Shown here: piece by piece, positions 17,657 to 39,308 of the stretch
Position numbering within the stretch: the first letter of the stretch is position 1
How the letters are laid out: each line of letters opens with the position of its first letter
From: a virus
Lineage: Duplodnaviria > Heunggongvirae > Uroviricota > Caudoviricetes
Reading direction: 5' to 3' (one strand)
Virus record (IMG/VR): IMGVR_UViG_2541047861_000010
Span: 1 to 39,308 of that record
Length of the DNA: 39,308 nt
Notes under the pieces: model-generated
What the model was told of the DNA's origin: nothing
Databases searched by the model: none
The model's input: the letters and a program-made list of their open reading frames with translations, nothing else
Position numbers and translations under genes: made by a program

Positions 17657-17660
17657 GGTT

Positions 17661-19473: not shown

Positions 19474-19506
19474 CAATCTAATTAGCTCACAAACATAAGA
19501 CACCTT

Positions 19507-19529: not shown

Positions 19530-19686
19530 TTATATGATAAAGCGACTACCTTCTATGAGCCCTTATAACTCTCATCCACTGCACATTTTCAAGTTACAAT
19601 TAAAGTTCATTTAGTTGAAATATAAAAAGGATGCCGTAAGAGGATAATGGCGATATTTCATCAATAAGGCGCAAGAAATGGCACAA

Positions 19687-21545: not shown

Positions 21546-21559
21546 GGTGTTTACTCCGT

Positions 21560-22338: not shown

Positions 22339-22341
22339 GCG

Positions 22342-22545
22342 TTACTCCCACAGATTGACAGTTTCAGCCACGGGCGCGGTCTGAACGTCGGGCAGTTCGA
22401 CGGCGGTGCCGTGCGGCAGCACCGCACCCAGTTCAGCCAGTCCCGGATTTGCGGCGAGCACAGTCTCGACCACGCCCTCAGTGCGCCCGTAATACCGGAC
22501 ACAAATGGCGTCGAGCGTGTCGCCCTGTAGCGCAAAGGTCTTCAT
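22342..22545 (-). CDS. X: Tail protein gpX (67 aa)
   Basis: Start at MKTFALQGDTLDAICVRYYGRTEG; start overlaps the L stop (TGATG). Confidence 0.85.
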   Translation of the reverse strand: MKTFALQGDTLDAICVRYYGRTEGVVETVLAANPGLAELGAVLPHGTAVELPDVQTAPVAETVNLWE

Positions 22546-23054
22546 CAGATTTGACTCACGATGCAGCGTGGCTTGTCCTGGATGCGCGCCACTGCCCAGC
22601 GCATATCCCGCCACAGTTCATCAATGGTGCTGTCAATGCTGTCGGCCTTCTTGTCGCCTTTCGCACTGGCATCCACGCCGCGATAACGCTCATAAAGCGA
22701 CGCGGTCGCCATCGCACACACGGCGCGCTCGTAGTAAAAAACTTTGATACTTTCACCGTCGATGTCGTCCGCCGGAACGTCCGCCAGACGCGTAAAACCG
22801 GCGGCAATTTTCTGTTCGCGGTACTCGTACAGCTCCGCATTTGTTTCCGCCATGCCTGACTTGATGGCCTCACGCAGACGGGCGGGGGCGACGGTCTGCT
22901 CAAGGCGCATACGTTCCCGGACGCGCTTCGGGTCGATATCGGGAAAAAAGAACGTGTTTTTAATCACCGGCTCGTCGCCTGCCGGTTGCGGGATGACCAC
23001 CGTACCCTCACCGGACACGGGAGCCTCCTTTCGCGGAATAATCAGCGTCATCAT
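22545..23054 (-). CDS. L: Head completion protein gpL (169 aa)
   Basis: Start at MMTLIIPRKEAP with GAGG 7 nt upstream; matches P2 L. Confidence 0.85.
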   Translation of the reverse strand: MMTLIIPRKEAPVSGEGTVVIPQPAGDEPVIKNTFFFPDIDPKRVRERMRLEQTVAPARLREAIKSGMAETNAELYEYREQKIAAGFTRLADVPADDIDGESIKVFYYERAVCAMATASLYERYRGVDASAKGDKKADSIDSTIDELWRDMRWAVARIQDKPRCIVSQI

Positions 23055-23153
23055 GACTACCTCTGAAAAGTCGGGCGGTGGACGCCGGTGCAGTGTCAGG
23101 TGATTCACCCTCACTGACCGGCGTGCCGCCCTGGCGCGGGGCGCATTCGGTTG

Positions 23154-23897
23154 TTAACTGGCTTTCTTTTTCGGGCGTCCACGTTTTGCCGGTGTCACGC
23201 TCCGGGTCTTACGCGGGGTACGGGTGGCCGCTTTTGGCTGCGGCTCCGGCTTCGGTTTCAGCTCCCGCTCCAGTCGTTCAATCTCTTTTTTGACGCCTGC
23301 CTGACAGTCGAGCTGTGTCGCACGTTGCAGATGCGCCAGCGCCCCTGCGGCATCACCAGCGTCACGCAGAAACAGACCGGTGATTTTGTGCAGCTTTGCG
23401 CGCACTTCATCAGGCATGTCAGCTGTGGCGGTCAGTTCAAGGGTGTCCGTCAGCAGGCGGGGATCCACAGACTCACCGGCAGCGTGGGCGCGCATGGCCG
23501 CGAGCGCGACCTCCTCGGTGAACATGTACGGCGGGGTACGGCGGTGTTTACCCGGCATGGTCAGACCGTACTTCAGGGCATAACGGACAATCTCCAGCGC
23601 ACCGGCAATATCGCCGGTATCCAGACGCCACAGCATGACCGTCATCAGAATGTCATCCTGTGCGCCTTTGCCCTGCTCCAGCACGCCGTTCACCCACGGC
23701 AACCAGAACGGCAGCAGTTCGCGCTTTTTCGCGGCCTTCAGCTCTTTTGAATAAATCGCTTTCAGTGTGCGCTGGTCTGCGGCCAGCTTGACCAGCATCT
23801 GCTCATAGACAGTTGCATGTCGCAGCGGGGCGGCTTCCCGCTGCGCGGTCATCGCTGCCGAGACCCGCATCATGTGGCGCTGTGCGGGACTCGTCAT
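23154..23897 (-). CDS. M: Terminase small subunit gpM (247 aa)
   Basis: 247 aa with a basic C-terminal tail; P2 M position. Confidence 0.9.
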   Translation of the reverse strand: MTSPAQRHMMRVSAAMTAQREAAPLRHATVYEQMLVKLAADQRTLKAIYSKELKAAKKRELLPFWLPWVNGVLEQGKGAQDDILMTVMLWRLDTGDIAGALEIVRYALKYGLTMPGKHRRTPPYMFTEEVALAAMRAHAAGESVDPRLLTDTLELTATADMPDEVRAKLHKITGLFLRDAGDAAGALAHLQRATQLDCQAGVKKEIERLERELKPKPEPQPKAATRTPRKTRSVTPAKRGRPKKKAS

Positions 23898-23900
23898 CGG

Positions 23901-24974
23901 TTACGCTCCCGGCTCTGCGGTCGCCTTAGCCGGTGTGGAGAAGTCACCGACCTTAATTTTTTCCACCAGACAACCGGCGGCGTAGTCTTCCACCACGTAA
24001 TCAATGTTCATTGACTCGTAGTTCTCCACGCGATCAAGTTTCGGGTTTTCCTCAATCACGCGGCGATGGCTGTCATCCATGTAGTAGATGGACAGGTTTT
24101 CCAGCTTCGTGATGAGCATCGCATCCGCCGGGAAGTACGGAACACGTACCGCCGGCAGATTACCGATGCGTTTCTGGCTGATGATGACGTCAGCGGCCAG
24201 CATTTCGCTGTTGTCCTGCTCCTTGTTGACGATGGGGAAATACTTGTCTGCCAGTAGCTGACGTCCCACAATCACCACAAGGTCAGGGTCTTCCTGATAC
24301 CACGGCTCAATCAGGTTGTTGGTCGCATCCATCACCAGTGCATCAAGGCTGGCATAATCACCGCCCTTGCCCACGCGGATAACCTCAGAGGTGGTGTGGC
24401 CTTCCTCGTCAGTGACCTTGCTCATCACGCGCGCCGGGGCTTCATTGCGGTATTTCTGCAGCCAGCCGACCGCCACATCCTGCAACATCGGATTGCTGCT
24501 GCGGTCAGAGGTTTCGGCACGCTTCACGCCGTTAAAACCGGCCATGATTAAATCAAGGGACTGGCGTTTGATAATGGCGTTACGGACACGGAGCTGGAAA
24601 TCCTGATAACGCGCCCACAGGTCAAGCGTTTTGTAGCGGATATAAAAATCGAAGTTAATCTGGTCGCATTCGTACTTGTTTGACGCCAGCTTCGAGAAGT
24701 CCTTCGGCTGACGCTCGGTGCCACCGGCGGTGTCGGTGGTGCTGGCGATGGAGCCGGTGACACCAATACCAATTTTTTCCCCTTTCATTTCGCTGACCGG
24801 CACAATGTTGATGCGGGTCAGAAAGTCAGAGGACTCCTGCATGGTGTTCATCAGGGTCTGGGTGACCGACGGTTCAACGGTGAATTTTTTCGACACATCA
24901 CCGGCGTCGATGCCGTTCAGTTCGGCAACACGGGACAGGTAGGCATTAAATTTAAAGCGGGTTTCCTGGCGCAT
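23901..24974 (-). CDS. N: Major capsid protein gpN (357 aa)
   Basis: 357 aa; P2 N length and position between O and M. Confidence 0.9.
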   Translation of the reverse strand: MRQETRFKFNAYLSRVAELNGIDAGDVSKKFTVEPSVTQTLMNTMQESSDFLTRINIVPVSEMKGEKIGIGVTGSIASTTDTAGGTERQPKDFSKLASNKYECDQINFDFYIRYKTLDLWARYQDFQLRVRNAIIKRQSLDLIMAGFNGVKRAETSDRSSNPMLQDVAVGWLQKYRNEAPARVMSKVTDEEGHTTSEVIRVGKGGDYASLDALVMDATNNLIEPWYQEDPDLVVIVGRQLLADKYFPIVNKEQDNSEMLAADVIISQKRIGNLPAVRVPYFPADAMLITKLENLSIYYMDDSHRRVIEENPKLDRVENYESMNIDYVVEDYAAGCLVEKIKVGDFSTPAKATAEPGA

Positions 24975-25031
24975 AGTTTTTCCTGAAATTAAGGGTTAAT
25001 CGTGAAGGTTTTCCCGGATGACTGATGCCGG

Positions 25032-25886
25032 TCAGCAGTTCGTCATCAGGGCGTCACCGCCACCGCCGGTGGCCTTGCTGCGGCGCTGCTGGGTCAGACT
25101 TTCGGTGTGGTCGAGACTGTTTTTCAGGCGGGTGAATGCCTGACTGGTTTCATCCGCCCTGTCAGTCACCTCCTGCTTAAGTGCGGAAAAGGCGGTTTCC
25201 ATCTCTGCGAGGCGCTGCTCAGTGGCGCTCAGTTTTTCCTGCACATGTTCAGCAACAGCGGTCACCGCTTCATGCACATCATTCAGGCGGGCGTCATCGC
25301 TGGCCTGTTTGCGGCCAAAAATGGATTTCACCTTTTCGGTCAGGGCGGTGAACACGGTTTCAGGCAGGTCTTCAAATTCCAGCTCAACAGGCGTTGCCAC
25401 TGAAATCAGGTTTTCAGGGCTTAATTTGAAGCGGTTCAGGGGGTTGTGTTTTGCCGTGCGGCAGAATTCCAGGTATTCCGTGCCGAGGCTTGCCGGGTCA
25501 TCGGTGACGGCCAGACCCACCAGATAACATTTGCCGGTGTTGGCAAAATTCGGCTGAATTTCCATTGAGGTATAGACCTTCTGCGCGGCCTTGTTCATCG
25601 CGATAAGGTCATCGGTCGGGGTGATTTTCGCAAACAGCGCCCATTTGCCTTTCAGCGCCGAATCGTCGTCAATCTTTTCGGCCTTCAGTTCGACCACATC
25701 GCCATAACGCTTAAAAATACCGTCAGGCAGGATGCCGCGCAGATGTTCCAGGTTAATGCGGCAACCATAGACTCGCGGGTCAAAGGTTTCGGCCATTTCC
25801 TGAATATCCTGCGCACTGATGACACGCCCGTCACAGGTGTCACCCTCAACACCGATACGAAAGAATTTTGAGACTTTTTTTGCCAT
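25032..25886 (-). CDS. O: Capsid scaffolding protein gpO (284 aa)
   Basis: Start set at MAKKVSKFFRIGVEGDTCDGR to match the P2 O N-terminus. Confidence 0.85.
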   Translation of the reverse strand: MAKKVSKFFRIGVEGDTCDGRVISAQDIQEMAETFDPRVYGCRINLEHLRGILPDGIFKRYGDVVELKAEKIDDDSALKGKWALFAKITPTDDLIAMNKAAQKVYTSMEIQPNFANTGKCYLVGLAVTDDPASLGTEYLEFCRTAKHNPLNRFKLSPENLISVATPVELEFEDLPETVFTALTEKVKSIFGRKQASDDARLNDVHEAVTAVAEHVQEKLSATEQRLAEMETAFSALKQEVTDRADETSQAFTRLKNSLDHTESLTQQRRSKATGGGGDALMTNC

Positions 25887-26059
25887 TGTCAGGAGTCCTG
25901 AATAGTGATTAGAGGAGTCAAATGTCGGCATCAGTTTCCCGACGATGCGCATCCTCCGCCATCAGTCCCGGATGGCTTATCACTGACACAACAGCACCTT
26001 AGCGAATCGCGGGGCGCGACTCAGTAGCCTTGCCGTGTATTCATCACGGCGAGGTATTC
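25887..26059. promoter_or_regulatory. Divergent late-promoter region for the O-side and P-Q operons
   Basis: Intergenic region between divergently oriented O and P, where P2 late promoters lie. No perfect TGT-N12-ACA dyad found; an inverted repeat CCGTG-N7-CACGG is present at 26033-26049. Confidence 0.4.
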
Positions 26060-27832
26060 ATGACCATCACCACAGACACCACTCTTTTACACGACCCGCG
26101 TCGTCAGGCGGCGCTGCTGTACTGGCAGGGATTTTCCGTGCCGCAGATTGCCGCCATGTTGCAGATGAAACGCCCGACGGTGCAGAGCTGGAAACAGCGC
26201 GACGGCTGGGACAGTGTTGCCCCCATCAGCCGTGTCGAAATGAGTCTGGAAGCGCGGCTGACCCAGCTCATCATCAAACCGCAGAAAACCGGCGGTGACT
26301 TCAAGGAAATTGACCTGCTCGGACGCCAGATTGAACGACTGGCACGGGTAAACCGCTACAGCCAGACCGGCAACGAGGCAGACCTTAATCCGAACATCGC
26401 TAACCGCAACAAAGGCGGGCGTCGCAAACCGAAAAAGAATTTTTTCAGTGACGAGGCCATCGAAAAGCTGGAGCAGATTTTCTTTGAGCAGTCTTTCGAA
26501 TATCAGTTGCACTGGTATCGCGCCGGGCTTGAGCACCGCATCCGCGATATCCTGAAATCCCGCCAGATTGGCGCGACGTTTTATTTTTCCCGCGAGGCGC
26601 TGCTGCGCGCCCTGAAAACCGGTCATAACCAGATTTTTCTGTCGGCCAGTAAAACGCAGGCGTATGTGTTCCGCGAATACATCATCGCCTTTGCCCGGCT
26701 GGTTGACGTTGACCTGACCGGTGACCCGATTGTCCTGGGCAATAACGGCGCAAAACTGATTTTTCTCGGCACCAACTCCAACACCGCACAGAGCCATAAC
26801 GGCGACCTGTACGTCGATGAGATTTTCTGGATCCCGAATTTTCAGGTACTGCGTAAGGTGGCATCAGGTATGGCCTCACAGAGTCACCTGCGCTCGACCT
26901 ATTTCTCCACCCCGTCCACGCTGGCGCACGACGCCTACCCGTTCTGGTCGGGTGAACTGTTCAACCGGGGACGCGCCAGCGCCGCCGAACGCGTGGAAAT
27001 CGACGTCAGTCATAACGCCCTTGCCGGTGGGCTTCTCTGTGCGGACGGCCAGTGGCGGCAGATTGTCACCATTGAGGACGCGCTGAAAGGCGGCTGCACA
27101 TTGTTCGACATTGAGCAGCTTAAACGTGAAAACAGCGCCGACGATTTTAAAAACCTGTTCATGTGTGAATTTGTTGACGACAAGGCGTCGGTGTTCCCGT
27201 TCGAGGAGCTGCAACGCTGCATGGTCGACACGCTGGAAGAATGGGAAGACTATGCGCCGTTTGCCGCGAATCCGTTCGGCTCCCGCCCGGTATGGATTGG
27301 TTACGACCCGTCACACCGTGGCGACAGTGCCGGATGCGTGGTGCTGGCACCGCCGGTGGTGGCCGGTGGCAAATTCAGAATACTTGAGCGTCACCAGTGG
27401 AAAGGCATGGACTTTGCCACTCAGGCTGAATCCATCCGCAAACTCACCGAAAAATACAACGTCGAATACATCGGTATTGATGCCACCGGCCTCGGTGTCG
27501 GCGTGTTCCAGCTCGTGCGCTCGTTCTATCCCGCCGCGCGCGACATCCGCTACACGCCGGAAATGAAAACCGCAATGGTGCTCAAGGCAAAAGACGTTAT
27601 CCGCCGTGGCTGTCTGGAATATGACGTCAGCGCCACCGACATCACCAGCTCGTTTATGGCTATCCGCAAGACCATGACCAGCAGCGGACGCAGTGCCACC
27701 TATGAGGCCAGCCGCAGCGAGGAAGCCAGCCACGCCGACCTCGCCTGGGCGACCATGCACGCCCTGTTAAATGAGCCACTCACCGCCGGTATCAGCACCC
27801 CGCTGACATCCACCATTCTGGAGTTTTACTGA
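26060..27832 (+). CDS. P: Terminase large subunit (ATPase/endonuclease) gpP (590 aa)
   Basis: Start at MTITTDTTLLHDPRRQAALLYWQGF (GAGG 7 nt upstream) matches P2 P; stop overlaps Q start (TGATG). Confidence 0.9.
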   Translation: MTITTDTTLLHDPRRQAALLYWQGFSVPQIAAMLQMKRPTVQSWKQRDGWDSVAPISRVEMSLEARLTQLIIKPQKTGGDFKEIDLLGRQIERLARVNRYSQTGNEADLNPNIANRNKGGRRKPKKNFFSDEAIEKLEQIFFEQSFEYQLHWYRAGLEHRIRDILKSRQIGATFYFSREALLRALKTGHNQIFLSASKTQAYVFREYIIAFARLVDVDLTGDPIVLGNNGAKLIFLGTNSNTAQSHNGDLYVDEIFWIPNFQVLRKVASGMASQSHLRSTYFSTPSTLAHDAYPFWSGELFNRGRASAAERVEIDVSHNALAGGLLCADGQWRQIVTIEDALKGGCTLFDIEQLKRENSADDFKNLFMCEFVDDKASVFPFEELQRCMVDTLEEWEDYAPFAANPFGSRPVWIGYDPSHRGDSAGCVVLAPPVVAGGKFRILERHQWKGMDFATQAESIRKLTEKYNVEYIGIDATGLGVGVFQLVRSFYPAARDIRYTPEMKTAMVLKAKDVIRRGCLEYDVSATDITSSFMAIRKTMTSSGRSATYEASRSEEASHADLAWATMHALLNEPLTAGISTPLTSTILEFY

Positions 27833-28866
27833 TGAGCAAGAAAAAAGGGAAAACACCGCAACCTGCGGCAAAAAAAATGACCGCCAGCGCCCCGAAAATG
27901 GAGGCATTCACCTTTGGTGAGCCGGTGCCGGTACTCGACCGCCGTGACATTCTGGATTACGTCGAGTGCATCAGTAACGGCAGATGGTATGAGCCGCCGG
28001 TCAGCTTTACCGGTCTGGCAAAAAGCCTGCGTGCTGCCGTGCATCACAGCTCGCCGATTTACGTTAAACGCAATATTCTGGCCTCGACATTTATCCCGCA
28101 TCCGTGGCTTTCACAGCAGAATTTCAGCCGCTTTGTGCTGGACTTTCTGGTGTTCGGTAATGCGTTTCTGGAAAAGCGTTACAGCACCACCGGCAAGGTC
28201 ATCAGACTGGAAACCTCACCGGCAAAATATACCCGCCGTGGTGTGGAGGAGGATGTTTACTGGTGGGTGCCTTCCTTCAACGAGCCGACAGCCTTCGCAC
28301 CTGGCTCCGTGTTTCATCTGCTGGAGCCGGATATTAATCAGGAGCTGTACGGCCTGCCGGAATATCTCAGCGCCCTTAACTCTGCCTGGCTGAATGAGTC
28401 GGCCACGCTGTTCCGCCGCAAGTATTACGAAAACGGCGCACATGCCGGATACATCATGTATATCACCGACGCATTGCAGGACCGCGATTACATTGACTCA
28501 CTTCGCGAAAACATGGCCAGGTCGAAAGGCCGCAATAACTTTAATAATCTGTTTCTCTATGCACCGCAGGGAAAGCCAGACGGCATCAAAATTATCCCGC
28601 TCAGTGAAGTGGCGACAAAGGACGATTTTTTTAATATCAAAAAATCCAGCGCCGCTGACCTGCTGGACGCGCACCGCATCCCCTTTCAGTTGATGGGCGG
28701 CAAGCCGGAGAACGTCGGGTCGCTGGGCGATATTGAGAAAGTGGCAAAGGTCTTTGTCCGCAATGAGCTTATCCCGTTACAGGACAGGATTCGGGAAATA
28801 AACGGCTGGCTCGGTCAGGAGGTCATCCGCTTTAAAAACTACTCACTGGACACTGACAACGGCTGA
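27832..28866 (+). CDS. Q: Portal protein gpQ (344 aa)
   Basis: 344 aa; P2 Q length and position next to cos. Confidence 0.9.
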   Translation: MSKKKGKTPQPAAKKMTASAPKMEAFTFGEPVPVLDRRDILDYVECISNGRWYEPPVSFTGLAKSLRAAVHHSSPIYVKRNILASTFIPHPWLSQQNFSRFVLDFLVFGNAFLEKRYSTTGKVIRLETSPAKYTRRGVEEDVYWWVPSFNEPTAFAPGSVFHLLEPDINQELYGLPEYLSALNSAWLNESATLFRRKYYENGAHAGYIMYITDALQDRDYIDSLRENMARSKGRNNFNNLFLYAPQGKPDGIKIIPLSEVATKDDFFNIKKSSAADLLDAHRIPFQLMGGKPENVGSLGDIEKVAKVFVRNELIPLQDRIREINGWLGQEVIRFKNYSLDTDNG

Positions 28867-28871
28867 ACATC

Positions 28872-28893
28872 GCCGCCTGCGGGCGGCTTTTTT
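28872..28893 (+). terminator. Rho-independent terminator after Q
   Basis: Hairpin GCCGCC-TGCG-GGCGGC followed by T6. Confidence 0.6.
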
Positions 28894-29035
28894 ACACCCC
28901 GTCATCACGCCCTCACACGCTCACCACCGCACAAAACACCCCGCAGACACACCAACGCCTCAACGGGCAGACTAAGCGCGGTCACGACGCGCTCAGGCGC
29001 TGAAAAAATAAAATCAGCACCACCGCCTGCGCGCA

Positions 29036-29054
29036 GTGCTTTCCCCGCCTCGCC
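29036..29054. other. cos site (19-nt cohesive-end sequence)
   Basis: GTGCTTTCCCCGCCTCGCC is the reverse complement of the P2 cohesive end as I recall it (GGCGAGGCGGGGAAAGCAC); located next to Q as in P2. Confidence 0.75.
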
Positions 29055-29095
29055 CGCCCGCTTCATGGGTCGGTTTTAATGCAGTTGTATTTAAT

Positions 29096-29128
29096 GGAAA
29101 AAGCCCTCCAGGACTGGAGGGCTTTTCT
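29096..29128. terminator. Bidirectional rho-independent terminator between cos and the cargo operon
   Basis: Hairpin GCCCTCC-AGGACT-GGAGGGC flanked by A5 upstream and TTTTCTATT downstream, so T-tracts on both strands; about 60 nt past the stop of the last cargo gene. Confidence 0.55.
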
Positions 29129-29182
29129 ATTAGAGTTCGTAAAATGCTCATGCAAATTCACGCGTTATGCTGCAAAAAACAA

Positions 29183-30250
29183 TCATTTCTTAGCTTTCAC
29201 AACCGGATGCGCGCGATCATGTCCACCGCCACGATGCTTAGAAAATATAACCTTTTCATTAGTAAAAGGTTTTTGGCCATAGACACTATCATAGTGGAAA
29301 AAGACGTTCGGAAGATGAGGCACACGGATGAATCCATACTTCACTCTAGTATCACCGATGACCCCAAAAACCCTTGTACTTACTGGGTAGCATAGTTCAC
29401 CACAACGCATCACTAATTCATCTGCTGTTGGGCGTTCAGAAGGTTCCAATTTTAAACAATCTTCTATAAGTTTAATTATTTCATTTGCCAATGGCGCATA
29501 CTGTCTATTTGAAAATATAAAGTCAGGGTAAGGAACATGCGTGCCAGAAAGTATTTTTGGTATAGCCATATAACCAATACCAAAAGGGTATTTTCCAGTA
29601 AGAATCCTGAACATCATCGCACCCAATGCCCAAATATCTGTAGGTTTCGAAACCTTACCTTGACTCTGTATGATTTCCGGTGCCATATATGGCAAAGCCC
29701 CGATAGCCGTTTGCGAAGAACTAATTGAATCTTGACCATTTCTTGCAGCCTCATCAATTTCATCTCCGGCCATCTTTGAAATGCCGAAATCCGTAATTTT
29801 TATCTCTGTAGCATTGATACCACCGCCTACCATTATATTTGAAGGTTTGAGGTCCCGGTGTATGACGTCAACATGATGCGAAGCAGACAGAGCTTTAGCT
29901 AAATTATGAAATATTTTAGCAGTTAAATATGGATCAACACTTGAATAAGTGTCTAAAATAGCCTTATCCAAGTCAACTCCATCAATAAATTCCTCCGTTA
30001 AAAACTCTCTACCCTCATCATCAATGAAGTAATCTAAGGTTTTAGCCACATTAGGATGATTAACCCTTGATGCTAATATTGCACTTCTATGAAACCTTTT
30101 TTCAGCAGATTTATTTTTGGGAGTTTTGAGAGCCACATGCCTCGAGAGAATATTATCCATTGCCAAATAAACTTTTTGCATACCGCCTTCACCAATCTCC
30201 CTCAATATTGTATATCTGCTAACTTGAATTCCTGGAGTCAGATTTATCAT
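29183..30250 (-). CDS. Hanks-type Ser/Thr protein kinase with C-terminal cold-shock-like (OB-fold) domain (355 aa)
   Basis: Kinase motifs present: G-loop GEGGMQKV, VALK lysine, HRDLKPSN, DFG, APE. C-terminal 60 aa (VFGVIGDTRVKYGFIRVPHLPNVFFHYDSVYG...EKVIF) aligns by eye to the CspA pattern. AT-rich; start overlaps upstream stop (ATGA). Confidence 0.85.
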   Translation of the reverse strand: MINLTPGIQVSRYTILREIGEGGMQKVYLAMDNILSRHVALKTPKNKSAEKRFHRSAILASRVNHPNVAKTLDYFIDDEGREFLTEEFIDGVDLDKAILDTYSSVDPYLTAKIFHNLAKALSASHHVDVIHRDLKPSNIMVGGGINATEIKITDFGISKMAGDEIDEAARNGQDSISSSQTAIGALPYMAPEIIQSQGKVSKPTDIWALGAMMFRILTGKYPFGIGYMAIPKILSGTHVPYPDFIFSNRQYAPLANEIIKLIEDCLKLEPSERPTADELVMRCGELCYPVSTRVFGVIGDTRVKYGFIRVPHLPNVFFHYDSVYGQKPFTNEKVIFSKHRGGGHDRAHPVVKAKK

Positions 30251-31311
30251 AACACCACCTCCGGATGGGAAAGGTCAAATGTAATGAAGACCCGCTCTTT
30301 TCTTGGCCGAGAAGTCTCTCCCAGAATAATAACACATGAATCAGGCAAAATATTATATTGCTTTGCAGCTATATTATTCACATACACCTCACCACTTAAA
30401 CTCGATATATAAAACTCTGAACCAGAATATTTCACCTCAATAGTCCCGACCCCTGAATTATTAAAAGCCGCAGATTTATTTGTTGAAGAAATGATGACGG
30501 GTGGAGTGTTATCAGAGATTAACAATGCTCTATGAGAGTTGTAGAGAACGAATTTTTTTAGAGTCTGACACACATCAGCCATATCAGGTCTCTCACAAGG
30601 ATTCGTATCTAAACATTGGAAAAGCAATTCTTTTACCTGAGTTGGTAACTGTATATTAGAATTATCAAAAGGATTAGACAATAATTTTTTGGGTAAAACT
30701 CTCATTTCCGGTGGTAGTGGGGTCTTAGCCAAAAACATGGCCGTTACAGCAAAAGCATATGTATCTATGGATTTTGTAAACGCTACTTGATGTAAAAATA
30801 ATTCAGGTGCAGCATATGTTGGGGTTCCTTTAAAACCTATTGTATTAGCTTCATCAACATTTCTAGATAGTCCGAAGTCATAAATCTTCACTACTCCCTC
30901 AGAATCAATTTTCATGTTCCCAGGCTTGATATCCCTATGAATAATATCATGAGAATGTATCTCAGAAATACCCGAAGATATTTGCCACAAAATTTTAATC
31001 AGATCTTCAGAATTTAATATGCGATCCTCTACTTCCAATAATGAAGGTCCGTCAACATACTCTTCGACTATAGCAATTCCTTTACCTTGATAATTAATAA
31101 CATCATAAAGCTCTACTACATGTTTTGATCTTAATTTCATCAATGCTGATAACTCATCCATCATTCGAGGAGAATCATCAGGATTACTTATGGACTTTAT
31201 AGCGACAAATCTTTCGAGGTGAGTATCCAAGCATTTGATCACGCAACCAAATCCTCCCGAAGCCTCTTCTTCAGTCCTCTTATATCTTGCAGGGAGAGTA
31301 AAATTAGTCAT
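30247..31311 (-). CDS. Hanks-type Ser/Thr protein kinase with C-terminal FHA-like domain (354 aa)
   Basis: Kinase motifs present: GGFGCV, VAIK, HRDIKPGN, DFG, APE. C-terminal segment (SSLSGEVYVNNIAAKQYNILPDSCVIILGE) resembles the FHA signature. RBS AAGGAG 7 nt upstream. Confidence 0.85.
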   Translation of the reverse strand: MTNFTLPARYKRTEEEASGGFGCVIKCLDTHLERFVAIKSISNPDDSPRMMDELSALMKLRSKHVVELYDVINYQGKGIAIVEEYVDGPSLLEVEDRILNSEDLIKILWQISSGISEIHSHDIIHRDIKPGNMKIDSEGVVKIYDFGLSRNVDEANTIGFKGTPTYAAPELFLHQVAFTKSIDTYAFAVTAMFLAKTPLPPEMRVLPKKLLSNPFDNSNIQLPTQVKELLFQCLDTNPCERPDMADVCQTLKKFVLYNSHRALLISDNTPPVIISSTNKSAAFNNSGVGTIEVKYSGSEFYISSLSGEVYVNNIAAKQYNILPDSCVIILGETSRPRKERVFITFDLSHPEVVL

Positions 31312-32470
31312 CTTTATCTCCTTTAGTGGAGTTTTTCTCAGAGAATGAAATATCTAACTGTGAAATATTATCTAACTTATCATTATTGTTAGCTTCGATA
31401 ACATTCCTTCCCTCATCACTCTTTATATTACTATTTTTTTTCTTTGTACGTGATTTCCTTTTCGATACATTTTTTTTGTTAGAAATTTCATTACTGCATT
31501 CTAACTCAGTAACTTTTCTATCAATAACATTTTCAACCGTAGCTGAGTTAGGTATATCTAACGGCGCAGGTTGCACGCTAATTACTTTCATCTCACCAAA
31601 AGGATCCCATAAATTAATTACATCCCCAGATGATACATCCAAAGCACTTAGGATGTTCGAAATCTCAACTACCGCAATCGACGCATTATCAAATCCACCA
31701 AACCAACTAGCTAGATCTATAACTCTTTTAGCGAACACTCCAGTATTATTGGAGTGAGCATATAATTTTCTCAAATTATTACTGTCAATGGTATGAGCAC
31801 CATCTGAAGTTAATGCAACCACCCCAGGTACGAGCCGAATATCGTGAAAATGTATCTCAAGAACACCATCAAGACCTATAAACTGTACTAACTCGCCACC
31901 TAACCTAGAATCAATAACACCTGAGTCACTACCAAGATGCTCATTATATTTCTTTGCCAATACAGCTAATGTATCATCCTCACTAATTTGTTTTATGTGT
32001 TCAGCATTAATGGAATATATGCGACTATCCCCGACATTTATTGCTGTAATGTTATCGGAGTCATCTACAGCTAAGGCAGATAACGTAGCCCCACCGTTCC
32101 CATTATATACTTTCAAAACCGATTCATTTGCTTTTAAAACGGCGATTTCAAGACATTGTCTAATTGGCAAGCCTGAGTGTTTAATTATCTCGGTAAAAAA
32201 AGATGATACGGTCAATGAAGCAGCATTCGCTCCCCCTTCCATCCCCCCCATACCATCTGCTAAAGCGATGACAATCATGTCCTTATTCTTACTAAAAGGA
32301 CGAAATTTTAATACAGCTACCCGGTCTTGGTTCTCTTTCCTAACTAAACCTATGTCTGTAGCAATAGCTGCAGGTAGCATAGATACTCTTCGTACAGATG
32401 AAGAGATATTTTTTCTATGCAGCCAAGCGTGTATCTGTTCATGAAGGATCTCGTAAGAGTCTCGACTCAC
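31304..32470 (-). CDS. PP2C-family Ser/Thr protein phosphatase with Lys-rich disordered C-terminal tail (388 aa)
   Basis: PP2C motifs ALADGMGG, VGDSR and TSDG read in the translation. GTG start with GAGGAGG 4 nt upstream; 3' end overlaps the downstream kinase start by 8 nt (ATGACTAA). Confidence 0.8.
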   Translation of the reverse strand: MSRDSYEILHEQIHAWLHRKNISSSVRRVSMLPAAIATDIGLVRKENQDRVAVLKFRPFSKNKDMIVIALADGMGGMEGGANAASLTVSSFFTEIIKHSGLPIRQCLEIAVLKANESVLKVYNGNGGATLSALAVDDSDNITAINVGDSRIYSINAEHIKQISEDDTLAVLAKKYNEHLGSDSGVIDSRLGGELVQFIGLDGVLEIHFHDIRLVPGVVALTSDGAHTIDSNNLRKLYAHSNNTGVFAKRVIDLASWFGGFDNASIAVVEISNILSALDVSSGDVINLWDPFGEMKVISVQPAPLDIPNSATVENVIDRKVTELECSNEISNKKNVSKRKSRTKKKNSNIKSDEGRNVIEANNNDKLDNISQLDISFSEKNSTKGDKDD

Positions 32471-32691
32471 AGCGCCTCCTCAAGCAAGCATTTCTCCGAA
32501 GCTATAGATTACAAAACACTAACGGCAATTCCTAGCATTACCCACTCAATTCCATTAGAAAACTGACGTAGTACAGTTAGTTGAATATTATTGTGATGAC
32601 GAATGCCAATCCTCTGATCACGCTGATTACAATATCACAACTCCCCGCTCTCCGATTCACAGTATTCAGTGATACAGAATATCACCTCGTA
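32471..32691 (-). promoter_or_regulatory. Probable promoter/leader region of the phosphatase-kinase-kinase cargo operon
   Basis: AT-rich 221-bp non-coding gap between the stop of gene A and the start of the phosphatase gene; no specific -10/-35 assigned. Confidence 0.3.
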
Positions 32692-34977
32692 CTATATACA
32701 TCGTTGATTTATTGGAAGCCCCGGCCACTCATCAACAACCGGATATGTAAATTTTTTCTCGCCATATGCCACCCTCGCACCTCGTGCTAGTACATCCAGC
32801 TCCCACCGTTCCGGCGTGATGCCATGCTGTGCGAGGTCAAACCGGATACGCGATATCTGGTCGCGCTGCGATTTAGTCAGCCTTGCCGATGGCGCAATTT
32901 CATTAGGTTTTAACGGGCCTCCGTTTCTCTGCTGACGATTTGGTGTTCTCAGGCCGTGTTTTAATGCGCCCCTGAGCGCCCTCACTACATCCGGGTCATT
33001 CCATTCGATAACACCTTCATCAACCAGATTAAGTACTGCTGCGGCGTGCTCAGAAGGTGTGGGAGCCGGTAACGAAGTATCACCACCAGTGAGCTTTCCA
33101 CAGTTATTGACAGGACTCCGAGGCGCGGCGATGCCGCTTTTTAAAGTCAAAGGCTCAACGACCGGAACTTTCGGCACAATGCGCCAGTCCGTCGTTCTGG
33201 TGATATGAATATGACGCGCGCCGAGATGCGGCGCGTAAATGCCGACCACCCTCTCGACCTCTTCCTCGTACTCGTTAACGTCATCCGACGGGCTACGGGC
33301 GACTCTGACAGTCTGACAATCGCGCGGGACATTTGCCCCACCCTGCGCGCTGATATACAACGCAAAATCACCACTGTCTGCGGCGGCGCGTGCAGCCTCG
33401 ACGCGCTCGTCAAACTCATCAGCAATGCTGACGCCGCGCGGCAATTTGCGTAGTTCACGGTAAGCCCCCATTGTCGGCAGACCAACCGTTTTAAATTGCG
33501 GGATGCGCCACGTTGACGCCCATGCGGTAACAGCCGCAGCAGTGTCTTTCAGCGGCCTGCCGGTATCGTTATCGAGCTGACCATCCAGTGCATAGCCGTC
33601 GATGTTTTTTGAGATGTATTTCGCGATATACCCCGCAGCACCGCCCCGGTTAAGGTGTTTTGCCTGAAAACGGTTTCGCGCGGCTCCTCTTTCATCGCCA
33701 TCCTCTTTGAGCGCATAGCGACGCATGATTTCGATAATCTGGTTACGCTGGCGCGGATTACAAAAAAGCATCATATGCCAGTGCGGCGTTCCGTCGTGGT
33801 GTGGCTCGACGACACGCAAACCGTAGACCTGTAAATCATTATCCTTGAATGCCGTGCGCATCAGGCTCCAGATACGGCAGAGATAACGCTGCGCATCCTT
33901 TGGATTAAATGCCTCATCGTTCCAGCCGTGATTTAGCTGGACGGTTTTACTTTCGCCTTTTCTGACCTGACGTGTCGGGTGATACTTTGACGGCGCGGTC
34001 AGCGTGATAAACATCCCCACATCACCCTCTGCTGCGGCGTAACGCTCAATACCGGCAATGGTGTTCATCAGCTCCATCCGGCGAATTTCAGGATTAGAAA
34101 TACTGCCCATCACCTTACTGATAAGGTCGATGCGCTCGCCGGTTTCCCTGTTTTCGAGATCACACGATTTAAGAAATTCCAGATTTGCCTGGCGGCGTGC
34201 ACGCACATCACGAATGGCATGTTTACTGGCATAAGGAGAACGGTCTTTATTGACCTCCCCGACAGCAATCAGTAACGCCTCATGCCAGCGCATACGCTGG
34301 CCTTTAAGCTGATGGGTCCACCACTCATCGTTAAACAGACGGGCAATGGCAGAATATGCCTGCCTCGTGGTCATCTGCCCTTTACGGTATTTTTTCCAGT
34401 AGAGCGGGGAAATATTGAAAGCACGTGCAGCACCAGCAACATGACCATAGAGGTGAGCCTGCGCCTCATCCGTAAACAGCGATTCTTTTTCGCCATGCGC
34501 ATCCCCCCAGGCATCGCAGAGTTCCTCATACATCATGAAAAGCTGCGATGAGATACGGGCGGCAAACTTTTTCAGCTCCTTGTCATTCATCCCCGGCAGA
34601 CGCGCATAATGGTCACGCTCTGCCAGAAACAGCAACGACGCGTCGGTGTTCATTTCATGGCGCTGATTCACACGCTCAATGCGCGGCCATAAACGACGCT
34701 GAAAAGTGGATGTGAGAAAATAAAACCCGTGCACCGGGCTTTTATTGCGCCGGATGTAGTCATAGCGTGACGTAAACAGCGAGCGCAAAAAGTAAGGCAG
34801 GCGGTTAATCGTGGATAAAACACCTTGCACCTGACGCATCTCGTCACGTGTAAGGGGTCTTTCGCGCCCGACAGCCTCGCGTGGCGCGTTCCATGCATAA
34901 GCACCGGTAAACGCCTTACCGGTGCCTGCGGCAAATGCTGACGGAGGGACAAAACGCCCGGAGGCTTTAACGGCCAT
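32692..34977 (-). CDS. A: Replication initiation endonuclease gpA (761 aa)
   Basis: Start set at MAVKASGRFVPPSAFAAGTGK to match the recalled P2 A N-terminus and length; sequence closely resembles P2 A. Confidence 0.9.
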   Translation of the reverse strand: MAVKASGRFVPPSAFAAGTGKAFTGAYAWNAPREAVGRERPLTRDEMRQVQGVLSTINRLPYFLRSLFTSRYDYIRRNKSPVHGFYFLTSTFQRRLWPRIERVNQRHEMNTDASLLFLAERDHYARLPGMNDKELKKFAARISSQLFMMYEELCDAWGDAHGEKESLFTDEAQAHLYGHVAGAARAFNISPLYWKKYRKGQMTTRQAYSAIARLFNDEWWTHQLKGQRMRWHEALLIAVGEVNKDRSPYASKHAIRDVRARRQANLEFLKSCDLENRETGERIDLISKVMGSISNPEIRRMELMNTIAGIERYAAAEGDVGMFITLTAPSKYHPTRQVRKGESKTVQLNHGWNDEAFNPKDAQRYLCRIWSLMRTAFKDNDLQVYGLRVVEPHHDGTPHWHMMLFCNPRQRNQIIEIMRRYALKEDGDERGAARNRFQAKHLNRGGAAGYIAKYISKNIDGYALDGQLDNDTGRPLKDTAAAVTAWASTWRIPQFKTVGLPTMGAYRELRKLPRGVSIADEFDERVEAARAAADSGDFALYISAQGGANVPRDCQTVRVARSPSDDVNEYEEEVERVVGIYAPHLGARHIHITRTTDWRIVPKVPVVEPLTLKSGIAAPRSPVNNCGKLTGGDTSLPAPTPSEHAAAVLNLVDEGVIEWNDPDVVRALRGALKHGLRTPNRQQRNGGPLKPNEIAPSARLTKSQRDQISRIRFDLAQHGITPERWELDVLARGARVAYGEKKFTYPVVDEWPGLPINQRCI

Positions 34978-35242
34978 ATGAGCCAAAAGCCTCTGAACAA
35001 CGCTTGCTGAGTTGCTCAACCTGCACGTTTAAATCAGCAAAAGACTTTGCGCTTCCGGTCAGAATATCGTGATGCATCAGGCCGGAAACGAGCTGGCTTA
35101 ATTTCGGGTAATAACCAACCACCGACAGCCATTCCTGACCGGCGTTTTTACCGCTTTCCGCTCTCTTTTTCTCGTGGAGAATAAACTGAAAGCTGTCACT
35201 GGTAACGACATAACGTTCGCCAATTTCAATACGAATACTCAT
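34967..35242 (-). CDS. P2 orf83-like early protein (91 aa)
   Basis: Position between orf82 and A; ATGA overlap with orf82 stop. Confidence 0.7.
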   Translation of the reverse strand: MSIRIEIGERYVVTSDSFQFILHEKKRAESGKNAGQEWLSVVGYYPKLSQLVSGLMHHDILTGSAKSFADLNVQVEQLSKRCSEAFGSYGR

Positions 35243-35463
35243 GCCGTTCTCCGGTAATGTTTGTTTTTTGCTTCAAAGACTGACTGACAGGAAACACAAC
35301 GCGTGGCTGACGGATAAGCCGCACGACGGGCAGCAGGTATTGGCGCGTCACACTCTTCGCAAACCAGCGCAGAAGCACCGCAATGTTTTACCCTTGCCGC
35401 GTTAATCTGGCGCTCCAGTAATTCAGCCTGTTGCTCCTGAATAAAATCTACGTTGTCCGGCAT
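35239..35463 (-). CDS. TraR/DksA-family C4 zinc-finger protein (P2 orf82-like, 74 aa)
   Basis: Motif CxxC-N17-CxxC (CEECDAPIPAARRAAYPSATRCVSC) typical of TraR/DksA; P2 early-operon position. Confidence 0.75.
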   Translation of the reverse strand: MPDNVDFIQEQQAELLERQINAARVKHCGASALVCEECDAPIPAARRAAYPSATRCVSCQSVFEAKNKHYRRTA

Positions 35464-35465
35464 TA

Positions 35466-35768
35466 TCAGCTCCTTTTATCGTTAAGTTTCCTGGATACAT
35501 CAGCGCAATAACTGGCAAGTTCTGTCGTTAATTTTGTCAGTTCATCCACTGAGGAAATTTGCTTGTGGAATACAGCGCGTTTAACAAGTAAATTGACCAC
35601 ATCAGACAGGAGGTTTAATTCATTCTGATAAATCGCGATAACAGATTCAGTGATGTCGCGTTTTTCTTTATCAAGACAAAGTTGAATAAGAGACAAATCA
35701 CCATTTTCCATAACGGCGATTTTTAAGGCGTTATTCAGTAATACAACTGAATGAGAACAGGACATCAA
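35466..35768 (-). CDS. P2 orf81-like early protein (100 aa)
   Basis: Synteny in the early operon; ATGA overlap with orf80 stop. Confidence 0.7.
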
Positions 35769-35989
35769 AGCACCTCCCCGCGAGACAATCCGATATTGTG
35801 AAATTTTTCCGACTCCTGACTGAGCAGCTCGACTATCTCCACGCGGGATAACTCCGCCTTTGTGATGTGGCGAATCATGGCGTCAAGATGAGAAGAAAAG
35901 CGCGTCGCTGCGTCGGCCTGTGCTTCGGTTCTGGCCTGTTGCAGCAGTAATGCGTATTTACCGCACTGATTTTCAGAAACTGTATGCAT
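35765..35989 (-). CDS. P2 orf80-like early protein (74 aa)
   Basis: Start at internal ATG (MHTVSENQ) with GGAGAAAG upstream. Confidence 0.7.
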
Positions 35990-36052
35990 GACTTTCTCCA
36001 GGCAAAAAGAAGCCCCGCACAATTAAGTGCGTTAAAAACTCTGGTTAATTAC

Positions 36053-36553
36053 TTAATGCAGATATTGCTCTGGTTTTACCGACGTCAGAATTGTCGGTGC
36101 ATACTCAAACAGGCTGAATAATTCACGTAATGCACGGAATAAGGCATCACGCCAGTAACATGATTCTTCATTAATTCGCCAGTATGGCTGGTTGAATTCT
36201 TTTTCAGTCAATCCGGCATGCATAAATAAAGTACGGCGCTGACTGACAGTTAAAAAGCTAATATATGCATACTCACTTGCACCGACCTGACGGCGTTTTG
36301 AGAATGCCCCACGCAGTTCATCAATTGCACAAACCAGCCGTTCACGTTCGACGTCGTTCATTTCTTCAAAACGCATCGTTGCGTGACGCTGTTTTAACTG
36401 CGCATGGAAGCAAACCGTTAGCCGTTCGCGTTCCATCATCTGATTATAATAATCGCATGTCTCCTGCCAGCGAGGGACGGCCAGATGCTTACCAATTATC
36501 CGGCGCATAGCTGCTGGCTGTTTTTCAACGAGATTGAGCGTCATCACTGTCAT
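36053..36553 (-). CDS. B: Replication protein gpB (166 aa)
   Basis: 166 aa; P2 B length and position between cox and A. Confidence 0.9.
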   Translation of the reverse strand: MTVMTLNLVEKQPAAMRRIIGKHLAVPRWQETCDYYNQMMERERLTVCFHAQLKQRHATMRFEEMNDVERERLVCAIDELRGAFSKRRQVGASEYAYISFLTVSQRRTLFMHAGLTEKEFNQPYWRINEESCYWRDALFRALRELFSLFEYAPTILTSVKPEQYLH

Positions 36554-36720
36554 TTCCAGACCCTCCGGCTTTTCAGAAAGGTCAGAGCCTTTTTTAACGG
36601 ACTCTGTTTTTTGGTGCGGATAATGATTCCCTTACGCCCCTTACCGTGGGTGATGGTGAAGTCAATCGCCCTAGGGCTTTCGTTACGCAATAACTGAGCA
36701 ATACAACGAGGCTCATTCAT
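36550..36720 (-). CDS. Small basic protein at the P2 orf78 position (56 aa)
   Basis: Start at ATG 36718-36720 with AAGGAG 7 nt upstream, directly after the cox stop; stop overlaps B start (ATGA). Confidence 0.55.
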   Translation of the reverse strand: MNEPRCIAQLLRNESPRAIDFTITHGKGRKGIIIRTKKQSPLKKALTFLKSRRVWK

Positions 36721-36730
36721 ACGGTTCTCC

Positions 36731-37006
36731 TTAACGTGGTTCACCGAGACCTAACCACATCAACCAGCCGTCACGAATCTCTTTAGGACGGCTTTCATAA
36801 GCCAGTTTTAGTCCGTTATTCCATGCCGGAAGGTATACCCAATATTCACCAGCACGCCCCGATACTGACTGAGGGTCAGTAATCTCAATAACTGGTAATT
36901 TCCCTTTCTCAATCATGCCCCTTACAGCTCTTGGAGTTTTACCAATGAGTTTTGCAAACTCCTGATAAGGCACGGCATCAGTCACGCTTACAAGCTGTCT
37001 ATTCAT
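36731..37006 (-). CDS. cox: Cox excisionase / early-operon regulator (91 aa)
   Basis: 91 aa; divergent from C across the switch region; P2 Cox length and position. Confidence 0.9.
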   Translation of the reverse strand: MNRQLVSVTDAVPYQEFAKLIGKTPRAVRGMIEKGKLPVIEITDPQSVSGRAGEYWVYLPAWNNGLKLAYESRPKEIRDGWLMWLGLGEPR

Positions 37007-37127
37007 CTGCTACGATTCTCCCTTAGTGCTTCTAATGGCTCCTAATGGCTAATTATTGCCTAAAAGGATAACTCCAGAAGCACAATATTTCACACTATCA
37101 GCAAGAAATTACGCAATCGGAGTAATT
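37007..37127. promoter_or_regulatory. Lysis/lysogeny switch region (Pe/Pc) with tandem direct repeat CTAATGGCT x2 as candidate C operators
   Basis: Intergenic region between divergent cox and C; CTAATGGCT occurs at 37032-37040 and 37042-37050 (10-bp period). P2 C is known to bind direct repeats near Pe. Confidence 0.5.
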
Positions 37128-37427
37128 ATGTCAATAGACGTTTCGGAGAAGTTGAAGCTAATCCGTGAATCTGAAAGGTTAAACCGTAAAGAATTCAGTG
37201 AATTAACTGGTGTAGCCTACAGCTCACTTTCGAGCTATGAGAGCCGGTCAAAAAACGCTGGAGTTGAAGCCATAATGAAGGTCTTACAACATCCCAGATT
37301 TACTAAATATACTTTGTGGTTCATGACTGATCAGGTAGCTCCAGAAGCCGGGCAAATTGCGCCCGCTCTCGCACACTTTGGGCAAAACGAAACAACGTCG
37401 CCCCACTCCGGTCAAAAGACTGGTTAA
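37128..37427 (+). CDS. C: Immunity repressor C (99 aa)
   Basis: Start at MSIDVSEKLKLIRESERL with GGAG 8 nt upstream; the C-terminal half is close to P2 C as I recall it (FTKYTLWFMT...QIAPALAHFGQNETTSPHSGQKTG). Confidence 0.85.
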   Translation: MSIDVSEKLKLIRESERLNRKEFSELTGVAYSSLSSYESRSKNAGVEAIMKVLQHPRFTKYTLWFMTDQVAPEAGQIAPALAHFGQNETTSPHSGQKTG

Positions 37428-37542
37428 CAATTTATCGTGAATATATTCATCACAAGTGCCTACTATTGGTGGCTAAATTTCAGCCACCACGAAAAAAGCG
37501 ATTAGTAGTAGCAAAAAAAAGTACCACTCGGAGGGTTTTCTG

Positions 37543-38556
37543 ATGGCAATCAAAAAACTCGATGATGGTCGATATGAAGTGGACATCCGCCCTACTGGAC
37601 GTAACGGAAAACGCATCCGTAGGAAGTTTGATAAGAAAAGCGAAGCTGTCGCTTTCGAAAAATACACGTTGTACAACCACCACAATAAAGAATGGCTATC
37701 AAAACCAACAGACAAACGACGTCTGTCGGAACTGACACAGATCTGGTGGGATTTAAAGGGTAAACACGAAGAGCATGGGAAATCTAATCTTGGAAAAATT
37801 GAAATCTTCACAAAAATAACGAATGACCCATGCGCATTTCAAATCACGAAATCCCTTATCAGCCAGTACTGCGCCACCCGAAGAAGTCAGGGTATTAAAC
37901 CTTCGAGTATCAATCGTGATTTAACATGTATTAGCGGCATGTTTACAGCCCTGATTGAAGCGGAGTTATTCTTTGGTGAGCACCCTATCAGAGGGACAAA
38001 GAGGCTTAAGGAGGAAAAACCAGAAACAGGCTATCTCACACAGGAAGAAATTGCCTTACTGCTTGCAGCACTTGACGGCGACAACAAAAAGATTGCGATT
38101 CTTTGCCTGAGTACAGGAGCACGTTGGGGAGAAGCAGCTCGTTTGAAAGCAGAAAATATCATCCATAACCGCGTCACGTTTGTTAAAACGAAAACAAACA
38201 AACCACGCACCGTCCCGATCTCAGAGGCTGTTGCCAAAATGATCGCGGATAACAAACGAGGTTTTTTATTCCCTGATGCTGATTACCCTCGCTTCAGACG
38301 AACAATGAAAGCAATAAAACCGGATTTGCCAACGGGGCAAGCCACACATGCACTAAGGCACAGCTTTGCCACTCATTTCATGATTAATGGAGGAAGTATT
38401 ATCACGCTACAACGGATACTAGGTCACACGCGGATTGAGCAAACTATGGTTTACGCTCATTTTGCGCCAGAGTACCTTCAGGACGCCATTTCTCTTAATC
38501 CGCTAAGAGGTGGTACTGAAGCCGAGAGTGTCCACACAGTGTCCACAGTAGAGTAA
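37543..38556 (+). CDS. int: Tyrosine integrase (337 aa)
   Basis: 337 aa with the tyrosine-recombinase C-terminal signature (HALRHSFATHF...LGH...YAH); GGAGGG RBS; adjacent to the att core. Confidence 0.95.
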   Translation: MAIKKLDDGRYEVDIRPTGRNGKRIRRKFDKKSEAVAFEKYTLYNHHNKEWLSKPTDKRRLSELTQIWWDLKGKHEEHGKSNLGKIEIFTKITNDPCAFQITKSLISQYCATRRSQGIKPSSINRDLTCISGMFTALIEAELFFGEHPIRGTKRLKEEKPETGYLTQEEIALLLAALDGDNKKIAILCLSTGARWGEAARLKAENIIHNRVTFVKTKTNKPRTVPISEAVAKMIADNKRGFLFPDADYPRFRRTMKAIKPDLPTGQATHALRHSFATHFMINGGSIITLQRILGHTRIEQTMVYAHFAPEYLQDAISLNPLRGGTEAESVHTVSTVE

Positions 38557-38635
38557 CGTTTAAGGGCTTTCAGTGGTAATTTATGCCGCTCAAACCCGCA
38601 TTGTACCGTTGAAAGCCCCTACTGGTGACACCCTA

Positions 38636-38663
38636 AATCTCCCTTACACGGGCTTATTTTTTA
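38636..38663. repeat. Prophage attachment-site core, int-proximal copy (28-bp direct repeat)
   Basis: AATCTCCCTTACACGGGCTTATTTTTTA identical to 6044-6071. Confidence 0.85.
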
Positions 38664-38990: not shown

Positions 38991-39308
38991 TCACTCTCCA
39001 CATTTGAATGTCAGACGAGCGACGCCATGTAATCCTGCACCTTCTGTCTTCAGGTCAACTATCTGCATTTTTTTGCCCTGAGTAACACAGAAATGAACTG
39101 CATCATTTTTTACTATATTTTCTGCACCAGATATTCTACCCCTGGCTAAAGAAGCTTCGGCTTCGGTGTAGTATTGGTTATCGAGTTTACGCTGAATATT
39201 ACTTTTATATGCAAGACCAAATTTACCGATACTTGTCTCATCATTATGTACAGCACACCCAGACATAAGAAAAACACTAATTAATGATATAGCAGCTATC
39301 TTTTTCAT
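38991..39308 (-). CDS. yegR: Lipoprotein YegR (105 aa)
   Basis: MKKIAAISLISVFLMSGCAVHNDETSIGKF... has a signal peptide with lipobox; matches recalled E. coli YegR in length and sequence. Start codon is at the window edge. Confidence 0.8.
   Translation of the reverse strand: MKKIAAISLISVFLMSGCAVHNDETSIGKFGLAYKSNIQRKLDNQYYTEAEASLARGRISGAENIVKNDAVHFCVTQGKKMQIVDLKTEGAGLHGVARLTFKCGE

Follow-up and report, generated by a model that had tools for sequence, protein, structure and literature searches.

Orf82 of a P2-type prophage in Escherichia coli is a TraR-family C4 zinc-finger protein identical to Orf82 of phage P2

What does a 74-residue protein with a CxxC-N17-CxxC zinc finger do in the early operon of a temperate phage? 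The question is raised by a small gene in the window, the whole 39,308-nucleotide stretch of DNA analysed here. The answer, which we regard as very probably correct, is that the gene is orf82 of a P2-type temperate phage (Peduovirus) residing in an E. coli chromosome, and that its product is a TraR-family regulator that binds RNA polymerase (RNAP). Gene, family and biochemical activity alike have been described before for this exact protein.

The product of the ATG-initiated gene at 35239..35463 on the minus strand, MPDNVDFIQEQQAELLERQINAARVKHCGASALVCEECDAPIPAARRAAYPSATRCVSCQSVFEAKNKHYRRTA, has cysteines at positions 28, 35, 38, 56 and 59. The zinc motif is built as C35-EE-C38, a 17-residue gap (DAPIPAARRAAYPSATR) and C56-VS-C59, whereas C28 is freely variable, being G or Y in close relatives, and is not a ligand. 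The gene is tightly fitted between its neighbours: the stop codon of orf81 (TGA, 35466..35468) falls within the spacer that separates the Shine-Dalgarno sequence AAGGAG from the orf82 ATG, and the orf82 stop and orf83 start overlap as ATGA, as read from GGCATGAGT. Two further open reading frames overlap the locus, one of 54 residues at 35241..35405 on the plus strand and one of 50 residues at 35226..35378 on the minus strand. Both are rejected as spurious because the orf82 frame has full-length family support, and neither the P2 nor the RefSeq annotation places a gene there. RefSeq names the identical gene 'TraR/DksA C4-type zinc finger protein' (WP_001113264.1).

As judged from its amino acid sequence, the family signal of Orf82 is far beyond chance. 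Pfam PF01258 (zf-dskA_traR) matched with an E-value of 3e-11 and 43.6 bits, above the gathering cut-off of 24.9, and PHROG_54 ('DksA-like zinc-finger protein') matched residues 1–73 with an E-value of 1.5e-32. The NCBIfam model TIGR02419, titled 'phage/conjugal plasmid C-4 type zinc finger protein, TraR family', scored 78.3 bits against a cut-off of 59.7 and was covered completely (profile positions 1–64 of 64). In a search of the PDB, the best relatives were the TraR chains 5w1s_M (E=9e-10) and 6n57_M (E=1.6e-9), followed by YbiI (2kgo), with DksA structures matching weakly. Orf82 scored below the cut-offs of the equivalog models for F TraR (NF010268, 43.2 versus 108 bits) and DksA (TIGR02420, 20.0 versus 115.5 bits; NF033459, 27.7 versus 105 bits), as well as of the PRK11019 protein equivalog model. 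It is therefore a member of the TraR subfamily and neither an F TraR nor a DksA orthologue. Apart from its score, an F TraR orthologue would be expected between traV and traC rather than in a phage early operon, and DksA proper has about 150 residues with a coiled coil, as opposed to 74 residues.

A single-sequence AlphaFold2 model of Orf82 reached a mean pLDDT of 61 and placed helices at residues 5–28 and 59–68 on either side of a short strand/turn region, the same order of N-terminal helix, strand/turn and C-terminal helix that is found in TraR. Foldseek comparison of this model with the PDB returned TraR (6n57_M) as the top hit, at a non-significant level (E=0.076, TM 0.35). Given the low confidence of the model, the identity of the fold is based on sequence and on published modelling, in which a RaptorX model of Orf82 was TraR-like (PMC9239242).

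The residues that matter for TraR function can be followed in two alignments (A1 and A2) of Orf82, F TraR, whose sequence was confirmed against plasmid records, lambda Orf73, VP882 gp61 and four other Peduoviridae homologues. Invariant across these 8 homologues are M1, D3, D6, C35, C38, I42, R46, R47, C56, C59 and E64. Orf82 thus retains D3 and D6 of the DxxDxA motif, both needed for function in TraR, and R46/R47, which align with TraR R48/R49, a pair that contacts the secondary-channel rim helices and β′ Si3 (PMC9239242). The alanine of the motif is missing: Orf82 has I8 where TraR has A8. Position 8 is I or V in 80 close relatives drawn from viral contigs, A in the two homologues from Eganvirus, and V in those from Felsduovirus and Kapieceevirus. 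Orf82 is still active with I8, so A8 is not strictly required. The polymorphism sample of 80 close relatives, collected by a viral-contig scan with a four-sequence alignment, covers near-identical P2-clade loci only; wider diversity is represented by four phage records taken one by one. Within the 80, the variant found in the window is the commonest (32 sequences), the zinc ligands and D3 are altered in singletons only, and D6 is never altered. C4-containing DksA/TraR-like proteins without activity exist (PMC9239242); function depends on more than the C4 motif, with contributions from the aspartates at the N terminus, the Arg-Arg pair and the C-terminal helix.

The gene lies in an operon of P2 type (Table 1). 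On the minus strand, cox, orf78, B, orf80, orf81, orf82, orf83 and A are co-oriented, tightly packed and intact in frame, in the gene order of the P2 Pe operon (AF063097.1). Alignment with the annotated P2 region points to a Pe-like early promoter upstream of cox, with a −35 element TTGACA (37129..37134), a 17-nt spacer and a −10 element TAATTT (37106..37111); the −35 element overlaps the start codon of the C repressor, as it does in P2. A strict consensus promoter scan of the region did not report Pe, and we infer the assignment from positional homology with P2. The hairpin and T-run between B and orf80 is the positional equivalent of the P2 'putative rho-independent terminator' (26980-27007), and it makes the level of orf82 expression relative to cox and B uncertain.

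Table 1. Early-operon features, cargo genes and comparison loci. Positions refer to the window, except in the last row, where they refer to the record excerpts named.
Feature	Position	Strand	Basis
Pe-like early promoter, inferred by position	37106..37134	-	Alignment with annotated P2 Pe region
cox, first early-operon gene	36731..37006	-	Pfam Phage_Cox E=1.7e-42; P2 annotation
orf78 homologue, 56 aa	36550..36720	-	Identical to P2 Orf78 over 56 aa; RefSeq CDS
Gene B (replication; lagging-strand synthesis in P2)	36053..36553	-	PHROG_235 E=1.5e-104; P2 annotation; near-identical protein
Terminator-like hairpin and T-run between B and orf80	36004..36031	-	Scan match; sequence
orf80 homologue (DUF2732)	35765..35989	-	Pfam DUF2732 E=6e-10; synteny; alignment A3
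orf81 homologue (DUF5405), directly upstream of orf82	35466..35765	-	Pfam E=6e-30; RefSeq CDS; intact frame
Shine-Dalgarno AAGGAG of orf82	35470..35475	-	6 nt 5′ of ATG, read from sequence GATAAAAGGAGCTGATAATG
orf82, TraR-family C4 zinc-finger protein, 74 aa	35239..35463	-	ORF; family matches; 100% aa identity to P2 Orf82
orf83 homologue (DUF5405 paralogue), directly downstream of orf82	34967..35242	-	Pfam E=5e-14; RefSeq CDS
Gene A, rolling-circle replication endonuclease, last large operon gene	32692..34977	-	Pfam Phage_GPA E=4.5e-123; 761-aa frame; RefSeq 'replication endonuclease'
PP2C-family phosphatase, 388 aa	31304..32470	-	
Ser/Thr protein kinase, 354 aa	30247..31311	-	
Ser/Thr protein kinase, 355 aa	29183..30250	-	
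DUF2732/TraR-like gene pair in four non-P2 record excerpts	L087 1568-2022; L088 1574-2022; L089 1568-2028; L090 1345-1805		

Beyond the P2 clade, the neighbourhood changes in part. In all four non-P2 Peduoviridae examined, which comprise 186-like, Fels-2-like and Klebsiella phages of the genera Eganvirus, Felsduovirus and Kapieceevirus, a DUF2732 gene homologous to orf80 lies directly upstream of the TraR-like gene with a stop/start overlap. Orf81 and orf83, the DUF5405 paralogues on either side of orf82, were seen, among the phages examined, in the P2 clade only. The initial annotation had proposed a TraR/DksA-like CxxC-N17-CxxC protein in the early operon; its coordinates were exact, although it left the strand unstated, and the motif, the family matches above cut-off with TraR as the best PDB relative, and the co-oriented packing with the other early genes all bear it out.

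What makes the function of the gene accessible is its identity with a protein already studied. Orf82 of the window is 100% identical over 74 residues to Orf82 of phage P2 (AAD03304.1; AF063097.1 27548-27772), as established by tblastn and direct comparison, and several other Peduovirus records in a tblastn search of phage genomes encode the same protein. At the DNA level, the window gene differs from that of P2 by 2 nucleotides, both synonymous and in third codon positions, and the 1.2 kb around it is 97.8–99.2% identical to P2-type phages of E. coli, Salmonella and Yersinia.

P2 Orf82 is one of five TraR homologues selected and purified tag-free by Gopalkrishnan et al. 2022 (mBio, PMC9239242). 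Against labelled DksA, Orf82 reached half-maximal competition for E. coli RNAP at 0.65–1 µM, about equal to TraR, and the authors concluded that the TraR homologues share the RNAP site with DksA and TraR. Orf82 inhibited rrnB P1 in the absence of ppGpp with an IC50 of 250 nM, as compared with about 50 nM for TraR and lambda Orf73, and did not inhibit the control promoter RNA-1. Transcription from thrABC and argI rose about 2- to 4-fold with the homologues, lambda Orf73 excepted, and IPTG-induced Orf82 complemented a dksA-null strain on minimal medium. RNAP binding, rrnB P1 inhibition and dksA complementation are thus facts about the identical protein. Counting against the assignment, Orf82 is about 5-fold weaker than TraR in vitro despite similar binding, and its DxxDxA motif is incomplete; the authors suggested that the missing alanine contributes to the lower activity (PMC9239242). 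Overexpression of Orf82 is cited in the same paper as halting cell growth (Liu, Saha and Haggard-Ljungquist 1993, through that citation).

The initial annotation had described a protein of the type that binds the RNAP secondary channel, had noted that phage-encoded members can reprogramme host transcription, and had proposed rRNA-promoter and RNAP-binding assays as checks. Competition with DksA, inhibition of rrnB P1 and activation of thrABC and argI by the homologues except lambda Orf73 agree with the former two statements, and the assays have in effect been carried out, with positive results, because the published P2 protein and the window protein are 100% identical (PMC9239242). The annotation was also right to call the gene a conserved P2-family feature: tblastn matches to Orf82 occur in 166 phage records, of which members of Peduovirus, Eganvirus, Felsduovirus and Kapieceevirus were examined individually, and a search of 5426 complete E. 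coli genomes at ≥95% nucleotide identity found the gene in 1603. With about 30% of these genomes carrying orf82 in P2-type prophages, a ppGpp-independent means of shutting off rRNA promoters is widespread in E. coli, held behind a prophage repressor. As a discovery the locus is small, since standard annotation pipelines already name the product 'TraR/DksA C4-type zinc finger protein'.

These elements can be assembled into a sequence of events. When the C repressor is lifted, or upon infection, Pe would transcribe cox-orf78-B-orf80-orf81-orf82-orf83-A, and Pe-driven expression of orf82 is likewise expected in the window prophage. Orf82 would be translated from its own strong ribosome-binding site. 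The protein binds host RNAP at the DksA/TraR site, the secondary channel. By analogy with the TraR structures, from which we infer the residue-level contacts, the N-terminal helix with D3 and D6 would reach towards the RNAP active site, the zinc-ribbon globular domain with R46/R47 would contact the channel rim and β′ Si3, and the C-terminal helix would contact β Si1. The outcome in this scheme is inhibition of short-lived promoters for rRNA and ribosomal proteins and activation of some amino-acid biosynthesis promoters. The likely gain would be a shift of host RNAP and resources from ribosome synthesis to phage replication and expression during lytic growth. A phenotype of a P2 orf82 mutant was not found in the searchable literature; for lambda Orf73 alone have slower host growth and a larger burst size been shown.

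Alternative roles can be proposed that keep RNAP binding but move the main purpose elsewhere. Orf82 might serve P2 chiefly in replication rather than in the reprogramming of ribosome synthesis, either by clearing or remodelling RNAP to avoid transcription-replication conflicts or by aiding B and A. In P2, orf82 lies between B and A, both of them replication genes, and in other Peduoviridae TraR-like genes lie directly 5′ of A or of replication-associated genes. This arrangement fits the idea, but where early genes are so closely packed their order says little. The DUF5405 neighbours carry the putative PHROGs label 'replication initiation protein', and according to the VP882 preprint DksA has a promoting effect on DNA replication, one unstudied for TraR proteins. 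Against this idea, what has been demonstrated for Orf82 is the inhibition and activation of transcription initiation at specific promoters. A primarily replicative role is improbable. It is similarly unlikely that Orf82 acts in complex with a phage partner, be it Orf80 or Orf81/Orf83, that strengthens or redirects its effect on RNAP. The precedent is VP882 TraR, which is complexed with QisA, encoded by its upstream neighbour; growth arrest is much stronger when the two act together, and a third protein inactivates the complex (2026 preprint). The stop/start overlap of the DUF2732 and TraR-like genes in all four non-P2 Peduoviridae, the translational coupling of P2 orf82 to its flanking DUF5405 paralogues, and the fairly weak activity of Orf82 alone, which leaves space for a helper, would suit such an arrangement. 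However, a search for a homologue of VP882 QisA (gp60) among cox, orf78, B, orf80, orf81, orf83 and A by blastp and phmmer --max returned none, purified Orf82 is active alone, the genes next to F TraR and lambda Orf73 are unrelated, and in so compact an operon genes would be neighbours by chance anyway. In its boldest form, to which we attach little probability, P2 Orf82 would be half of a phage-encoded pair in which a small co-translated protein (Orf80, or the P2-specific Orf81/Orf83) modulates or retargets its action on RNAP, with the DxxDxI tip as an adaptation to pairing. If this were true, the Orf82 pair would resemble QisA-TraR of VP882, and DxxDxI would be something other than a mere weakening.

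A different departure would be for the zinc finger to be a DNA-binding or activator module acting directly on phage promoters, as in Ogr. P2 does encode this other small C4 zinc-finger transcription factor, the late-gene activator, and the authors of PMC9239242 raise the possibility that some TraR homologues regulate the promoters of their own phages. Against it, zf-dskA_traR was the sole Pfam match above cut-off, with no Ogr/Delta family among such matches, on which ground an Ogr-like late activator is rejected; and TraR-family proteins act without DNA binding. We consider direct action on DNA highly improbable, and retain the reading of Orf82 as a TraR-family regulator that acts through RNAP.

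The element that carries orf82 is a complete P2-type prophage at 6044..38663, inverted with respect to the P2 map, as shown by blastn against the whole P2 genome. It is bounded by a 28-bp direct repeat, AATCTCCCTTACACGGGCTTATTTTTTA, at 6044..6071 and 38636..38663, which equals the P2 attP core, and is inserted between the E. coli genes for a U32 peptidase (4538..5899) and yegR (38991..39308). The immunity region (36984..37298) has diverged from P2 over the N-terminal half of C, the interval that holds Pe, Pc and the operator, and the very beginning of Cox; the repressor C itself lies at 37128..37427 on the plus strand, with a P2-like C-terminal half. The window prophage is probably heteroimmune to P2.

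Other parts of the prophage and its flank have features of their own. At 29183..32470 on the minus strand, where P2 has orf91/tin/old, a phosphatase and two kinases are found. Both kinases match the PADLOC mad6 and PD-T4-6 models with E-values down to 1e-54, and the phosphatase-kinase-kinase order and the protein sizes fit the kinase-kinase-phosphatase (KKP) module of Guo et al. 2024 (PMC11341870), who reported KKP clusters in P2 prophages. Between G and the F operon, the prophage lacks all of the P2 cargo region Z/fun (about 2.2 kb), the flanking P2 matches abutting within 3 bases at 12899..12903, and unrelated DNA at 18646..19685 takes the place of the P2 orf30 region; a 288-residue frame there (18607..19473, plus strand) had no Pfam or PADLOC match. 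The tail-fibre gene H (13434..16214, minus strand) encodes 926 residues versus 669 in P2, and at about 13625..15609 it includes a segment without a megablast match to P2, a difference that points to another receptor specificity. In the host flank, at 1..4050 on the minus strand, there are three co-oriented genes of unassigned function, encoding DUF4034 (715 residues, the frame running to the window edge), DUF1266 (238 residues) and PcfJ-like (404 residues) proteins.

Orf82 can finally be set against the known TraR and DksA systems. VP882 TraR (gp61), 32% identical to Orf82, is likewise encoded in a repressor-controlled phage operon and suppresses host growth in an RNAP-dependent manner; it differs in having the partner QisA, countered by QtiQ, whereas the P2-type early operon is without a QisA homologue. 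E. coli DksA belongs to the same PF01258 zinc-finger family and uses the same RNAP site, in line with the complementation of the dksA null by Orf82, but it is a 151-residue protein with a coiled coil that needs ppGpp for full activity, while Orf82 has a single N-terminal helix and is ppGpp-independent.

F-plasmid TraR (PDB 5W1S, 6N57) has 73 residues to the 74 of Orf82, about 38% identity, the same C4 zinc ribbon, D3/D6, Arg-Arg pair and KHY-containing C-terminal helix, and binds RNAP at the DksA site to regulate initiation without ppGpp (PMC9239242). It differs in position 8, in its lower IC50 on rrnB P1 (about 50 versus 250 nM) and in being encoded in a conjugative transfer operon rather than a phage early operon. 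Lambda Orf73 is, like Orf82, a phage TraR homologue that inhibits rRNA and ribosomal-protein promoters, and its expression falls early in lytic growth; it shares 30% identity and the same invariant residues, but its DxxDxA motif is complete, its potency equals that of TraR and, unlike the other homologues, it gives little or no activation of thrABC and argI. Its gene is unannotated as a CDS in RefSeq NC_001416, where it corresponds to a 73-residue frame at 30392..30613 on the minus strand, between ea22 and orf61. The nearest system is P2 itself, in which an identical 74-residue protein occupies the same early-operon position between orf81 and orf83 with the same neighbours; the two phages part company in the immunity region, the tail fibre and the cargo hotspots, and at orf82 only in the two silent nucleotides.
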